From NCBI RefSeq assembly GCF_054482525.1, contig NZ_CM137006.1: a stretch of DNA of 64,000 bases. The stretch is one strand, 5' to 3'. Numbering within the stretch: the first letter of the stretch is position 1; each line of letters opens with the position of its first letter. Of this stretch, positions 6,001-12,000 are shown one piece after another. A program made the position numbers.

Positions 6001-9000
6001 TCCGGTGTCGTCTGATTATCAAAGCGAATCTCCCCTGCGTTAACAATATCGCCGGTACTGACCACATCGCCATTCAGTACCATGCTGGCACCTTTACTGA
6101 GCTGTGTTCTGCCACTCAGACTTCCCCCGGCAGCCAGCGTCAGTGTTCCACGATGTCCGACAGTGGTGTTGCTGGCCAGTCCTCCGGCATTAACCGTAAA
6201 GCTGCCGCCATTTTCCAGCAGCAGTCCGCTGGCCTGACCGGATGTGCCATCAATACTGAACTTACCGCTGGCATTGGTCCCCTCAACAGTGGCACCACTG
6301 TCTGCAATCAGGGCACTACCGGATGTCATGGTGACATCTGTTGCCTTACCACCGGCAGACACTGCCAGGGTTCCGCCGTCATCCACCCGTGTTTTCCAGG
6401 CTGAATGGCCCTCCAGTACATCCAGGCGACCACCGGACTCCAGAACAACACCGTCAGCATTACCGTTTTCCACAGTGAAATTGCCCAGACGGTTGCTGCC
6501 GGTGACGGTTGCCGCCGTACTGGTGACCAGTGCGCCTCCCTGCTTCAGCGTGACATTCGTGGCTGTACCACCGGCGTTCACCTGCAGTTTGCCTTTCTGG
6601 TTAACGGTGGTGAAATCCGCCAGACCACCTTCCTTGACAATCTGCCAGCCGTCACTGTTCACAACAGTGTCAGAGGCTGTACCGCCGTTGTGCACATACT
6701 GGTTACCGCCGTTCAGTGTGGTATCCAGCGCGTAGCCATGTACAGTCTGGTCGCCGCCGGCATAAACCACAGTGGTATTTGCTGTTCCTTCAGCAGCCAC
6801 AATCTGACGACCATTTTCATTGATAGTGGTACGTACGGCATTTCCGCGAACAAACTGCCCGGTATCACCATTTTCTGCATCCGGTCCCCCTTCCGCGCCG
6901 GTATTCACAACCGTGTCGGTTGCCACTGCGCCGGATTTGATGGCCTGCCAGCCCTTCTCATTAATGACGGTACCCGTTGCAATCCCGCCTTCATGTACCC
7001 ACTGCTCACCGCCGTTCAGAGTGGTATTCACTGCCTGCCCCTGAAGGCTCTGTCCGCCTCCGGCACTGATAACCGTGTCTGAAACGCTTCCTCCGGCATT
7101 CACTCTCTGAAGACCACCACCGGTGACAGTAGTGTTGTTGGCGATACCGCCATTTTGTATCCATTGTCCGCCGGTATTGGCCTCGTTATCCGGCCCATAC
7201 TCCAGACCGGTACTGATGGTCATTCCGTTGGCCGTACCGAAGACAATCTGGTTGTCATGATTTGTCAGTGTTCCGCCGCTCACGGTTTCTCCCGCCTGTA
7301 CGACCGTGTCAGCAGCCAGTACCGGGACTGACGTGACAGCAGCAAGAGACAGCGCAACCGCCACACCGGTGCGTTTTCCCCGTGAGCGCGCCAGTTCGGA
7401 AGCCACCACCAGGGTGCCCGTAATGTGATTCCATACCAGCCTGTAGCTGGTGTTCAGATGTCGTTTCATCAGCTTTTCCTTACAGAGGGTGAATAAAAAA
7501 GCCGGTACCCACAAATGTGGATACCGGCAGGTACAAAACAGCATGGTCAGATAAAGTGGTTTTTCCCGGACATAAATGCTTCCCCTCTCTCATCCGCCAG
7601 AGAAGTATCAGTCCGTTGTGTGCAATTCCGTTCTGCATGATGAAGAGATTCAGCTGCCTTTTCGCAGACCATTAACCACTATAAACGATCGATAGCAACG
7701 ATCGATACCTGTTTTATCGATCGTTTTATTCTATTAACGACAAGGCGGTCACGCAAGAGAAACAGGAGGAGTATGAGGGGTTTGTGTCATGTTTTCAGTT
7801 GGTTAACGTAATGTTATCAGGCATTTCCCTGGCAGACTGTTCAGAAGAAAATCCAGTTCCATACAGCGCGGGCAACAGAGACCACCGTGTCACGGACGGC
7901 ACGCAGAACCGTACGGGCAACAGAGGCAACACAGACGCTCTCCGCCGTGTCAAATATCCGGTCCACCGCACCGGTAAACTGTTCACGGGCCTGAGCGCGG
8001 ACAGATTCCGTGCGCAGCTCGTCCTGCAGGCGGGTCATCAGGGGACTGGCGGCATGGTCGGGAAGTGCTGTCATTAGCGCACTGACCAGCGTATCCAGTT
8101 CCCAGCCGGTGCGGGCCGATACGGCAACAACCGGATGTACGGGCCGGAACAGACGGAATACCGCCTCCGTTTTCTCCCGAATGTTCTGTGCCTGTGCGGG
8201 AGAAGGCTGAATGCCGGCCATATCCCATTCATGGCAGGGCTCCGTTTTGTCGGCCTGCGTCACCACAAACAGCACCTGCTGATGTCCCCGGTGCAGGATG
8301 TGTCGCCAGAAATACTCATCCACAGACAGGGCGCGGTCATCGGCTTTAATCAGCCACAGCACCAGGTCCAGTTCGGGCAGAATGTCACGGTACAGGGCTT
8401 CATACTCTGCATCCCTGTCCCGGCTCTCGCCCACCCCGGGCAGGTCAGTGATAACCATGCTGTGACCATGGCCACTCAGACGGAAGCGCCGTACTTCCCG
8501 GGTGCCGGCGTGAACATCACTGACCGGGGTGACCTCCCCCTGAAACAGTGCATTACAGAGTGAGGATTTACCGGCCCCGCTTTTACCCATAATGCCAATC
8601 ACGGGTTCGTGACTGGTGAGTTTGCGCAGATGTTCCAGGATGTGACGGGAAAGCGAGTAAGGCAGGGAGGAGAGCGGTTTTTCAATTGCCTCAATGGCAT
8701 CAGACGGATTCATACATGTATTCCCGGTGAAAAAAGACAAAACCCCGCGCACCGGAAAAGTGGCGGGGGACTCACGGAGATAATATCTGCCTAAAATTAT
8801 TTGGAATGCAGGTATATGCAGCTAATTTGTATCGGCTCATTAGTACAGAACTAAACCTCATCTGACAGTCCGCTCTGTGCCAGGAGCAGACATTGCCAAC
8901 GTTATGACCCTCGATTACATCAAAGAGCCCTATAGCCGAAACCTGCACCATAGCCATCTCTGTAGAATTCGTCCTAGGGGCTTTTAACAGACCTAGTTGT

Positions 9001-12000
9001 ATGGAGCGGAAGGAAATATTAAAGCTCAAGGCGTCAGTCCAGTGCTGTCCTGTTTGCTTACCACACGAAAGAGTGCTGCTTGTACCTGCTAACTAATGGT
9101 ATGCGGAGTGAGGGGGGCGGGTAGAACCAAAAGCACTTACTACGTGTGGCGCTCTCCTGGAAGAGGAGACGTCGAAGTGATAACGCTAACAACAGTCTTA
9201 CTGGTGATGCAAATAATGCTAGCTGGTCTGGTTGCCATCAAGCAACTGACTGGACGCCCGTAAGGGATGGAGGAACTTGATTAAAGGCAGGGGGGTTACC
9301 TCCCCTGCCTTTTTTCGTTTCTGCGCAAGTTAGCTCTGTTATTATAATCCTTACTCACACTGTAAGGACATAGTTCAAATGACTGAATGGCTTAATGCAC
9401 ATTTTGGTGCAGACGCAGCTACCTATCTTAGCTTATTAGTCGGCGTACTGGCACTGTTTGGTATTGGGGGCGGTGTTACATATAGAATCAGACAGCAAAA
9501 CAACATAAAACAGAAGGCAAAGAAAACCGAGGGTGATGTGAACCAGGCCGGGCGGGATATTAATCAGACCACCAACGTTTACCACACATCCAATGAATCT
9601 ACTGAGGACCCTGTAAAAAAAAAGCAAGATGAACATGATCTGAAGATAATCGACCAGATCCTTGAATTGCTGCCTTATGAGGATACTACTCAATGGGTTG
9701 AGCAGAGCTACCTGAGCGGTATACGGCAAGATGTTTGCTTAAACATTGAAAAAGCTGAAAAATTTAGCGGTGAAAAGTATCGGTTATTCAATACTGAAGT
9801 GAATGGTGCGAAAGACGCTTTTTTGGACGCTATGACCGCATACGTAGATAGTACGCTACCATTTATGAGTGTTGATTACCCGAACAGAAAGCCAGTGATG
9901 CTAAGCCTTCCCCATGACTGGAAGAGTAAGAGTGTTGAATCGGAGGCAAACTTCCGCTTTCATCAGCAAAATGTGCGTGAAACATCGGGGGGGATGATTG
10001 CGCGCTATGAGGATTTTGTCAGGACATTTAAGGCTCATGGATTCATAAGCGATAAACTGTAAAGGCGCAGTGGGTCAGCGAACACCGCAACGACAGAACC
10101 GCGTAAGCGGTAAAATCAGCTTGTTAACTGGCGAGTTTATAGCCGTCCCTCCGGGGCGGCTTTTTTATGACTATAATCGACAGAATCACCTGAACGTCCA
10201 GGTGGGTTTCCCTGACAGGACGTCAAGGAATGTTCGCTTTGTGCCAGGAGCGGACGTTGCCAGCATTGAGTTTTCAGTTTTCAAAGGTATATCTTTAGAT
10301 TTAGTTCACTTAGAATGAGCGTGTTAAAGTTTTCGGTTATGTGAGTATATTGAACATAACAAATAAACAATAATTTTTGTATTCCATTTAAGATATAAAA
10401 AAGAGGGATTTGAGTTATGTACGATTATAGTTTTTTACTTACTCCATCTACAGGATTTGTTAAAGGATTATGTGGAGTTTGGTCGAATGATTTCTCTATA
10501 AATGATGATTCTGACTCTGATTTAGGGCAAACAGATATTCATTTACTTTCATCTCCTCATTTGAATATCATATCCGACCCAAATGAATTGGCTTCCAAGT
10601 TAAAAGGTTTGTTGATGCTCATGAACGGCGCACTTAGCGTTCTTTATGGTTTTGAAAGATATCAATCTTTTGGTCCTCTTTCTATTTCTGGAAGTGAAGG
10701 CATTAATTACTCGGAAATATGCGGCTTTAAATCAATGGATGTAACTCAGGTAAATCCCTTTAATTTCCATGACATACAGCAACCACACCCTCGCGCTGAT
10801 AATTTTTCACGATTAATTAATTTATCATCTAAACATGAATCCTTACGTGTTGTTTTAGGTATGTGTGCCTTAGGTTATGATTGGGTTAATCTTTATCGTT
10901 TGTGGGAAACAATTAGAGAATATGTATATGATAAATATGTGAAAGGTATACTAAATTTTCCCGACGCTTATAAAGGCAAGAAATATCAGAGAGATAAAGT
11001 AATTAGCATGGCTTTTAATATTGATGAAAAGGAAATCAGCAGATTCACGGGCACTGCTAATAGCTTTGAACTGTTAGGGTATCTTGCGAGACATGGAAAG
11101 GGAAGTTCCGGAGGGATATTAAAAAATCCGATGTCAAGAGTTGACGCAAGCAATTTCGTACACAAAGCAACTTACAAATATTGTAAGTTATTTTTGATGT
11201 AAGTAAAAAGTTGAAGCTATAATACTCAAAGTATCGAAAACTACGTTCGTCGTGCACTCGAAAACAATATGCTTATTGTGTCTGCACTAATTACTCAAGG
11301 TCCGAGAAAAATGGCGAAGCTCATCTTTTTCAGGCTTCGCCAACTTGAGTTATTGGTTAAAATTCATTTAGGAATAATAGAATGCAATTCGTGACTCACC
11401 TGGATTTCATAGTGTTTCAATAGTTCTCCGATGTTAATTCCTACTACCTTACGAACTGCGCCGAGGGAGAAGTTAAGCTCCTCAATGCCCGGCCGATCTG
11501 GCGTTGAATTCATATAGTGTCGGCACGCACGGACAATTGACTCGACGATCAACGATAGCGGAGACTCAGGTGCAATCTCGGAGCGAATCGCCGTAAGAGA
11601 GAGTCGGAGCTCCTTCAAAGAATCCGAGACTCGTGCTGGATCCTCTTGAGCATATGGCAGATAAAGAGAACTCTTGTCTTCCAATAAATGGATCACCCGC
11701 AGAGCAATTTTCTCGTCTGGGCGATGCGATAGAAATTGAAACATTAGCCTCTTTCCTCCCTCCAAGCACTCCTTCATTAGTGATTCGTGGTCACGTTTCC
11801 ATTTTCGCAAATACTCGGCGGGGTAGCCCATACCGCCATTCTTATCAACTAAATCAGCACAAGCTCCGCACAACCATATAGCATTTTTTATGCTCTTCCG
11901 CTCTGTTTCTGACTGAGACATGTCATAGCGCGGTCCGCCAGGGCTCGCCGCGCAGATATGCGCCGCCTCACCCGTCTTGATAGAAAGATTTTCCGCCAAT

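Follow-up and report, generated by a model that had tools for sequence, protein, structure and literature searches.

What occupies the 626 bp between two genes of an Escherichia coli genomic island at which automated annotation is silent? The DNA in question, positions 8753–9378, lies in a window of 64,000 nt (the whole stretch analyzed here, from contig NZ_CM137006.1 of assembly GCF_054482525.1) that matches strains AH65, AH62, EC_J_9, and others at 100% identity. To its left is a YeeP-family GTPase gene and to its right an open reading frame (ORF) for a 227-aa hypothetical protein. An earlier inspection of the letters without database searches (the sequence-only reading) described the gap as free of any convincing coding frame, as ending in a strong terminator, and as a candidate non-coding RNA (ncRNA) or decayed gene. 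The gap is indeed blank: the Prokaryotic Genome Annotation Pipeline (PGAP) places no feature between these two genes in any E. coli genome with this DNA. We favor, at a probability of roughly 70%, the interpretation that one part of it, 9042–9327, is a relic of a plasmid type I toxin-antitoxin-like module, truncated at its 5′ end and deprived of its antitoxin.

The relatives that lead to this interpretation are found on plasmids. A sensitive blastn search of PLSDB with 8896–9378 returned 30 plasmids matching 9042–9326 at 67–78% identity, in unannotated DNA. The carriers comprise plasmids of Erwinia, Pantoea, Mixta, Serratia, and Klebsiella and, in Providencia, Proteus, and Citrobacter, plasmids of incompatibility group T (IncT), Rts1 and pT-OXA-181 among them; starting from the Klebsiella and IncT copies brought back the same plasmid set. 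A pattern scan of 100,044 species genomes, too strict in design and yielding mostly chance matches, contributed eight further true copies in Erwiniaceae. The nhmmer profile assembled from 14 plasmid and genomic copies matches 9042–9327 with an E-value of 8.7e-70 over profile positions 142–425 of 486. In its intact plasmid form the module spans about 480 bp and contains two genes, one for an mRNA of 330–360 nt and one, divergently oriented, for a small RNA (sRNA) of about 95 nt.

The mRNA encodes a small protein. Intact relatives have a sigma-70 −10 box (TATACT or TATAAT) about 230–260 nt upstream of a GTG codon that is invariant in the alignments, and GGAG, the Shine-Dalgarno (SD) sequence, stands 7–9 nt before this codon in 15/15 distinct sequences (14 relatives and the window copy). 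The 31-codon frame that begins here has a common stop codon in all full-length relatives examined but L064, where loss of the stop lengthens the frame to 51 codons; a frameshift makes the partial copy L052 look like a pseudogene. In three relatives a TAA immediately precedes the GTG, which fixes the start codon, and upstream in-frame extensions vary or are frameshifted from copy to copy. The consensus peptide, M-I-T/S-L-x-T-I-L-L-V-L-Q-I-x-H-V-x-L-x-I-I-V-A-I-K-Q-L-T-G-R-P, is a single hydrophobic helix with a short basic tail. The sequence-only reading overlooked its counterpart in the window, a homologous ORF of 28 codons (9177–9263), which differs in length from the family ORF only by a 9-nt in-frame deletion between 9230 and 9231. 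Both the window peptide and its 31-codon relatives are thus small (less than about 60 aa) and hydrophobic, with one predicted membrane helix. Across the family, codon position 2 is the least variable (mean pairwise difference 0.17 vs 0.31 and 0.33 at the other positions). A peptide profile searched against 1.84 billion representative proteins recovered 11 relatives, mostly with spurious N-terminal extensions, and all named proteins among them are called “hypothetical.”

The ribosome-binding site of this mRNA is predicted to be hidden. The inverted repeat CTCCTGGAAGAGGAG at 9154–9168, singled out by the sequence-only reading, turns out to be a hairpin in which the anti-SD CUCC pairs with the SD GGAG. 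CUCC occurs 6–9 nt upstream of GGAG in 14/15 sequences, the SD is paired within the hairpin in the single-sequence minimum-energy folds of 15/16 sequences, and the outer stem, as read by eye without a formal count, varies between copies yet stays paired. A fold that would block translation by sequestering the SD is accordingly predicted for the window and for 14/15 sequences. At larger scale, the RNA of 9042–9315 folds with −100.7 kcal/mol (z = −3.6; 0/200 shuffles as stable), in line with the earlier idea of a structured transcript unit. The RNAalifold consensus of 20 copies has 56 pairs, 21 of which carry compensatory changes, with 95.5% of cells paired vs 89.7% in shuffles and 35–46% when the partners are slid; the covariation score is 0.310 vs 0.198 in shuffles, and 0/500 shuffles reach either the paired fraction or the score, the structure having been derived from the same alignment on which it was scored. 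Some consensus helices lie inside the ORF, and a long-range helix (helix 1) links the 5′ part with the region of the stop codon. The terminator was correctly recognized as strong and on the plus strand, although its placement at 9275–9306 was slightly off: the 13-bp stem occupies 9283–9312 and the T-run extends to 9315. This Rho-independent terminator, helix 11 of the consensus, shows compensatory changes across the family. It is flanked by an A-run and a T-run, and its reverse strand also matches the profile, so that it is potentially bidirectional. Six terminator-like sites occur in 8500–9600, vs 1.1 ± 1.0 in shuffles.

A strong terminator, a fold far below shuffled controls, and a conserved, covarying structure are also what would be expected of a free-standing regulatory ncRNA with its 3′ end at the terminator, the main proposal of the sequence-only reading. 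The conserved structure, however, is that of an mRNA whose SD, GTG, and 31-codon ORF are conserved, no promoter was found, and the sRNA that the module does encode is another molecule, divergently transcribed and absent from the window copy. The covariance-model scan suggested as a check, run against Rfam on the window (at the gathering threshold and at E-values up to 10) and on eight plasmid loci, gave no match in the element to any family, antitoxin RNAs included; the nearest match is isrC/IS102 at 7488–7724. We regard such an ncRNA as very improbable. Of the two options offered earlier, then, the decayed gene holds in a sense, what has been lost being a 5′ end and a partner sRNA gene and not a conventional long ORF, and the stand-alone ncRNA does not, the RNA being the remnant of an mRNA.

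The partner sRNA of the intact module is specified by a divergent promoter (TTGACG-N16/17-TAAAAT or TAATAT) just beyond the −10 box of the mRNA on the opposite strand, followed about 95 nt on by an intrinsic terminator. Our scan called promoter and terminator in loci L002 and L004 and the terminator alone in L003, and the divergent unit is conserved across 15 aligned loci. The 5′ end of this sRNA and a stretch within the toxin leader are exactly complementary. Measured as the longest ungapped pairing between each leader and its own upstream region, cognate complementarity amounts to 18–27 nt in 13/15 loci and always lies 74–102 nt 5′ of the GTG, compared with a mean of about 11 nt and a maximum of 13–18 nt in shuffles; non-cognate combinations of groups give 9–16 nt, which is background. 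The remaining two loci, L003 and L051, have the same pairing site broken by mismatches. The target sequences differ by group (GTGCTGCTTGTACCTGCTAACT; GGGTGCTGCATGTATCGACTCGTA; and three singleton variants), and pairing between sRNA and target co-varies among at least five specificity groups. The sRNA body consists of a conserved internal hairpin and the terminator, with compensatory changes in 7/17 pairs, and its 5′ seed is predicted to be unpaired. In minimum-energy folds the 5′ end of the mRNA itself is predicted to pair with the sRNA-target segment, through sequences that appear to vary by group.

On plasmids, the module is found near ParA/ParM partition genes, resolvases, integrases, VapBC, and genes of leading regions (psiA, ardA-like/antirestriction, methylase), and it is also present on megaplasmids that are not mobilizable and in a small number of chromosomal locations in Sodalis and other Enterobacterales. 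The plasmid contexts fit a role in stabilization. The first plasmid matches were in leading regions, with psiA, antirestriction, DUF1380, and methylase genes running antiparallel to the element, as the GTPase gene does here; they also raised the notion of an Frpo/ssi-type promoter, active in single-stranded DNA of the plasmid leading region and moved into a chromosomal island. Such a promoter should be a long non-coding hairpin in fixed orientation 5′ of leading-region genes. The orientation relative to these genes is instead inconstant, numerous copies have partition or resolvase genes as neighbors or are located on chromosomes and non-mobilizable plasmids, and a conserved ORF together with an sRNA and its co-varying target does not suit a DNA hairpin promoter. 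This candidate was rejected and is barely credible.

How much of the module does the window retain? The sRNA target (9073–9094, the only target match in the window), the SD hairpin, the 28-codon ORF, and the terminator are all kept; the family promoter, the first ~80–95 nt of the mRNA, and the sRNA gene are gone. The sRNA profile matches the window only as the antisense of the target site, the related chromosomal loci likewise have no sRNA gene, and no match to the sRNA sequence was found in 5426 complete E. coli genomes. A second copy of sRNA or target, sought in the window and in the E. coli genomes, was likewise not found. A cognate RNA antitoxin is thus present in the plasmid relatives and absent at the window copy, which is therefore not a complete type I toxin-antitoxin system. 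The commonest E. coli variant carries two C-to-A changes in the target, which indicates that the target is apparently unconstrained. Homology begins at profile position 142 in every copy of the chromosomal lineage, namely the window, six other E. coli loci, L055/L056, and L068. Upstream of this point, 8896–9041 has no similarity beyond chance to the plasmid promoter and 5′ leader (z −1.7 to +0.9 against shuffles). A by-eye resemblance to the plasmid promoter and leader 5′ of 9042 was followed up and dismissed, as local alignments were no better than dinucleotide shuffles and the profile stops at 9042 in all chromosomal copies. The scan found no promoter-like site with at least 9/12 consensus positions on either strand in 8500–9600. 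The promoter put forward by the sequence-only reading, TTGGAA-N16-TAATTT at 8801–8828, is present, with only 7/12 consensus positions by our own count, but it belongs to the unrelated block upstream of the GTPase gene and is unsupported.

Two Erwinia loci show other states of the module. Erwinia sp. E602 (L051) has a second sRNA-like copy, 4298–4407 on the minus strand, 3′ of the toxin gene (E-value 4e-18). In Erwinia sp. HDF1-3R (L052, 3584–3957, minus strand) the toxin ORF is frameshifted and has a GTA start, and there are two sRNA-like matches; judged from its sequence, this locus appears to be the reverse of the E. coli case, with the antitoxin kept and the toxin dead.

Within the chromosomal lineage, L055 and L068 carry the intact 31-codon ORF. 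All E. coli copies checked share, as a derived change, a 9-nt deletion relative to these two, which removes Q-I-I from the helix, and the same E. coli copies, together with L068, share a 40-nt deletion relative to L055 between 9-nt direct repeats (GTCAGTCCA, 9033–9041). The lineage also has a 7-nt leader insertion at about 9117–9123.

Several observations from this lineage weigh against a dead relic. In seven distinct chromosomal copies, the four substitutions in the ORF (CTG/CTA, CAA/CAG, ATC/ATA, and ACT/ACC) are all synonymous, unlike the leader, which gathers changes freely; given a synonymous fraction of 0.28–0.32 for this ORF, 4/4 would arise by chance with P = 0.006–0.01, in a test that comprises four substitutions and was framed after the data had been seen. 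In three insertion contexts of very different kinds, the peptide is the same. Together these patterns argue for selection on the ORF in the chromosomal lineage and for its possible expression. Transcription may come from a weak promoter in 8896–9041 or from read-through; TAGAAT at 8963–8968, a weak −10-like hexamer that was seen by eye and that the scan did not call, would start a transcript of ~340 nt, the usual length in the family, a coincidence that is its sole support. The word “toxin” itself is borrowed by analogy and from the architecture of the module. The coding signal has its own limit: the ratio of nonsynonymous to synonymous differences (pN/pS) is 0.59 across the family, and one alternative frame scores similarly, which is weak alone, so that the case for coding depends chiefly on the conservation of start and stop codons and on indels that keep the frame.

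These points could be taken to mean that the element is a still-functional orphan gene for a small membrane protein, driven by a weak cassette promoter or by read-through, and that its product of 28 or 31 aa is made and has a use, such as that of an effector in a defense cassette borne by a phage or an island. The in-frame nature of the ORF indel agrees with this, as do the SD hairpin, GTG, and terminator, intact in 7/7 copies compared, the maintenance of the unit in three contexts (the GTPase island, the ends of P2- and lambda-type prophages, and beside nrdG), and the presence in the neighboring cassette of an HNH-nuclease-like candidate defense gene. On the other hand, no promoter-like site was called, an expressed toxin without its antitoxin should be counter-selected, every E. 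coli copy has a membrane helix shortened by the 3-aa deletion, and homologs of the 227-aa protein are encoded with no copy of the element beside them, so that the two are no obligate pair; the synonymous test is also small and post hoc. We judge a functional orphan possible but unlikely. A bolder version is more doubtful: the antitoxin-less ORF, under purifying selection in phage and island cassettes, would be a conditional membrane effector, such as an abortive-infection trigger fired by phage-driven read-through at the cassette edge, and, separately, the intact module would be an undescribed type I family with several orthogonal sRNA/target specificities. The silent relic remains the simplest interpretation because no promoter is called and no antitoxin is present.

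The constant neighbor of the lineage deserves separate consideration. The 227-aa ORF always follows 66 nt after the terminator on the same strand, an arrangement that might reflect a leader, an attenuator, or a co-opted terminator controlling this gene. Divergent homologs of the 227-aa protein (36–63% identity), however, show no trace of the element upstream, and four homologs at 39–59% identity lack it; the element is therefore not an obligate partner of the gene, and a two-gene system with the 227-aa protein was set aside on the same grounds. Plasmid copies, moreover, have unrelated or oppositely oriented neighbors, and a perfect TATAAT stands between the terminator and the ORF. This hexamer, read from the sequence and not called in the promoter scan owing to a poor −35, is likely the −10 box of the 227-aa gene itself and marks the right-hand limit of the element. 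Control of the 227-aa gene by the element is improbable in our estimate. If the window copy is a relic, as we favor, its terminator is likely the only part still at work, insulating the 227-aa gene from the GTPase side.

The remainder of the gap has a different origin. When 5426 complete E. coli genomes were searched by megablast, ~8753–8895 was found in 858, always 5′ of GTPase genes and at 86–100% identity, whereas 8896–9378 was found in just 32. On this split distribution, 8753–9378 is a mosaic rather than the single feature for which it had been taken. The junction is marked by 8841–8891, which is 81–86% identical to DNA of P2-like phages and matches a stretch annotated as the “left inverted repeat” in the Z region of P2-EC46 (AJ512680.1). 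Further repeat copies occur at 10232–10255 (direct) and 12269–12289 (inverted), and the latter equals the P2-EC46 “right inverted repeat” at 21/21 nt; left and right P2-EC46 repeats thus flank the cargo, as in a cassette of the P2 Z-region (TO hot spot). Everything right of ~8895 is thus the left end of a mobile cargo cassette, given that the unit formed by 8896 onwards and the 227-aa gene recurs in several other contexts: directly 3′ of the tail fiber assembly gene, the P2 cargo hot-spot position, in strain cM2a; after lambda-type tail genes in a record labeled Proteus vulgaris; and adjoining nrdDG in two assembled contigs. The repeats suggest site-specific cassette exchange between P2-type prophages and GTPase/Ag43 islands. 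Nilsson et al., in Mol Biol Evol in 2004, reportedly proposed such repeats as sites of recombination between P2 phages and pathogenicity islands.

Several smaller observations concern the same stretch. The three copies of the repeat core (GCTYTGTGCCAGGAGCRGAC) flank one or two cassettes, one with the relic and the 227-aa ORF and one with a 261-aa and a 250-aa ORF. An 85-aa minus-strand ORF (8772–9029) was considered as a conserved gene and discarded, as it spans the junction at ~8890 between two differently distributed blocks. A terminator-like hairpin with a T-run, 20–45 nt 5′ of the GTPase start codon and within the block common to the 858 genomes, may act as an attenuator or terminate a transcript that comes from upstream. 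Insertion sequences (IS) have entered this short stretch repeatedly: IS66 in E. coli E24377A (L053, ~3650) lies at the equivalent of window position ~9045, nearly at the homology breakpoint, which we treat as a coincidence; IS4/IS421 lies within the terminator loop in RS571 (L054, ~3908); and IS110 replaces the GTPase side in L057 (1–1461).

Beyond the gap, an IsrC/IS102 RNA (Rfam RF00124, 73 bits; 7488–7724, minus strand) lies between the GTPase and Ag43 genes, as in the CP4-44 element of K-12. The 250-aa ORF (11364–12116, minus strand) has an N-terminal HNH-endonuclease-like domain and matches the PADLOC candidate defense protein PDC-M68A (E-value 6.6e-24) and CBASS/SAVED-HNH effector models; the 227-aa and 261-aa ORFs beside it have no match in Pfam or PADLOC. 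Other Rfam matches in the window are STnc490/STnc100 sRNAs in tandem (27861–28205, minus strand), a weak tRNA-like match (28624–28691, minus strand; 30.7 bits), an ALIL frameshift pseudoknot of an IS3-type element (48018–48134, plus strand), and a single CRISPR-DR4 repeat unit (59843–59870, minus strand).

Table 1. Positions in the window of the toxin-like element, its parts, and the features around it.
Feature	Position	Strand	Basis or remark
Toxin mRNA gene homolog, truncated at its 5′ end (type I toxin-antitoxin-like module of plasmids)	9042–9327	+	nhmmer profile
sRNA target segment GTGCTGCTTGTACCTGCTAACT	9073–9094	+	identical to the “group 1” plasmid target; sRNA 5′ end is the perfect complement
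SD-sequestering hairpin CTCCTGGAAGAGGAG	9154–9168	+	predicted; anti-SD CUCC pairs with SD GGAG (9165–9168), 8 nt 5′ of GTG
28-codon ORF, hydrophobic peptide (M)ITLTTVLLVMQIMLAGLVAIKQLTGRP	9177 (GTG)–9263 (TAA)	+	in-frame homolog of the 31-codon family ORF
Rho-independent terminator of the toxin mRNA	9283–9315	+	13-bp stem 9283–9312 (8 G-C), then TTTTTT to 9315
Cassette-specific spacer	8896–9041	.	only with this cassette lineage: 32 E. coli genomes, L055, and L068
“Left inverted repeat” homolog (P2-phage Z-region cargo boundary)	8841–8891	+	core GCTCTGTGCCAGGAGCAGAC at 8872–8891
Conserved upstream block of the YeeP-family GTPase gene	8753–8895	-	outside the toxin-like element; ends in the P2-type inverted-repeat homolog
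Terminator-like hairpin and T-run	8733–8757	- (GTPase strand)	terminator scan: TTCCGGTGCGCGGGG then TTTTGTCTTT
YeeP-family GTPase gene	PGAP start codon 8713	-	left of 8753–9378
Ag43 autotransporter gene	4623–7544	-	left of 8753–9378
TATAAT hexamer	9343–9348	+	3′ of the terminator
227-aa hypothetical ORF	9379–10062	+	right of 8753–9378

A working model can be proposed for the intact relatives. The 5′ end of the mRNA would pair with the sRNA site and keep the primary transcript inactive, as in tisB, zorO, dinQ, and timP; the sRNA would block translation of the toxin mRNA or trigger its cleavage; and the peptide, where made, would damage the inner membrane, so that the pair could stabilize the plasmids that carry it. 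The window copy would be transcriptionally silent or barely expressed, hitch-hiking at the left edge of the cassette.

A region left blank by annotation pipelines thus appears to hold a recognizable, if incomplete, small-toxin gene, and the same gap in annotation extends to the plasmids, where the 31-aa ORF and the sRNA are missed or mis-called and the ORF, where it is called, becomes an N-terminally extended “hypothetical protein.” The feature in the window is modest; its interest lies in the intact family that it exposes, a candidate new family found in Enterobacterales from both plants and the clinic. Its host plasmids, among them Rts1, the classic representative of IncT, and carriers of carbapenemase genes such as pT-OXA-181, could be helped to persist by the intact module. 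The class of mechanism is well known and no major paradigm is changed. The co-varying sRNA/target pairs, at least five in number, nevertheless form a natural series for the study of antitoxin specificity, and the chromosomal orphan offers a case of how toxin genes may outlast the loss of their antitoxin.

Known families were searched for the module in several ways. Four family peptides gave zero families in Pfam and NCBIfam at E-values up to 10, the Hok/Gef, TisB, Ldr, Ibs, ShoB, ZorO, and DinQ toxins included, and neither the peptide motifs (KQLTGRP and QLTGR) nor a matching plasmid type I system was found in the full-text literature. RF00126 (ryfA) gave no match at E-values up to 10 in the window or in plasmid copy L002, and the family profile found nothing at the timPR locus of K-12. 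A 9-mer, GTGCTGTC(C/G), with its surroundings (GGTGGTGCTGTC), occurs both in the K-12 ryfA/timP leader (L065) and at 9042–9050; no statistical similarity between the ryfA leader and the family leader was detected, and the sharing is probably due to chance.

In its setting the module resembles hok/sok and its relatives (flm, pnd, and srn), which are likewise plasmid-borne, often beside psiA in the leading region, and which combine a small membrane toxin with a highly folded mRNA, a predicted long-range 5′–3′ helix, and a presumed role in plasmid stabilization. Hok, however, has ~50 aa, an overlapping mok frame, and the cis-antisense RNA Sok, whereas the module has an ORF of 31 codons without a conserved mok-like frame, a divergent trans-acting sRNA, and no match to the Hok/Gef family of Pfam.

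In its architecture the module resembles the chromosomal type I systems tisB/istR-1, zorO/orzO, dinQ/agrB, and shoB/ohsC of E. coli. These encode hydrophobic single-helix peptides of 26–35 aa, a long structured 5′ untranslated region (UTR) keeps their primary transcript untranslated, and a divergent trans-acting sRNA binds the UTR at some distance 5′ of the ribosome-binding site. The small hydrophobic helix, the structured leader, and the divergent sRNA that pairs far upstream are common to the module and to these systems. The E. coli systems differ in being chromosomal and mostly stress-linked, whereas the module lies among plasmid maintenance and leading-region genes.

The closest parallel, by analogy of layout, is timP/timR (ryfA/ryfB) of Salmonella and E. 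coli. The K-12 annotation gives a 304-nt ryfA mRNA, a 41-aa TimP, and a 100-nt divergent TimR. Here, too, an mRNA of ~300 nt, formerly taken for an sRNA, encodes a small membrane protein, and a divergent upstream sRNA of ~100 nt with an intrinsic terminator has a 5′ end complementary to a fixed site in the 5′ UTR of the toxin. In the timP/timR report (PMC7667032), a complementary sRNA, upstream on the opposite strand and ending in a terminator, is described for all species examined, with complementarity that co-varies from species to species. The two differ in that no sequence relationship links them, in that timPR is a fixed chromosomal locus and the module mainly plasmid-borne, and in their peptides, TimP having 41 aa with a signal-peptide-like N-terminus and a polar tail and the module peptide 31 aa with one helix ending in KQLTGRP. 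Taken with the searches that gave no match, these comparisons indicate that the plasmid module is probably an undescribed family of a well-known class, that of the type I toxin-antitoxin architecture.

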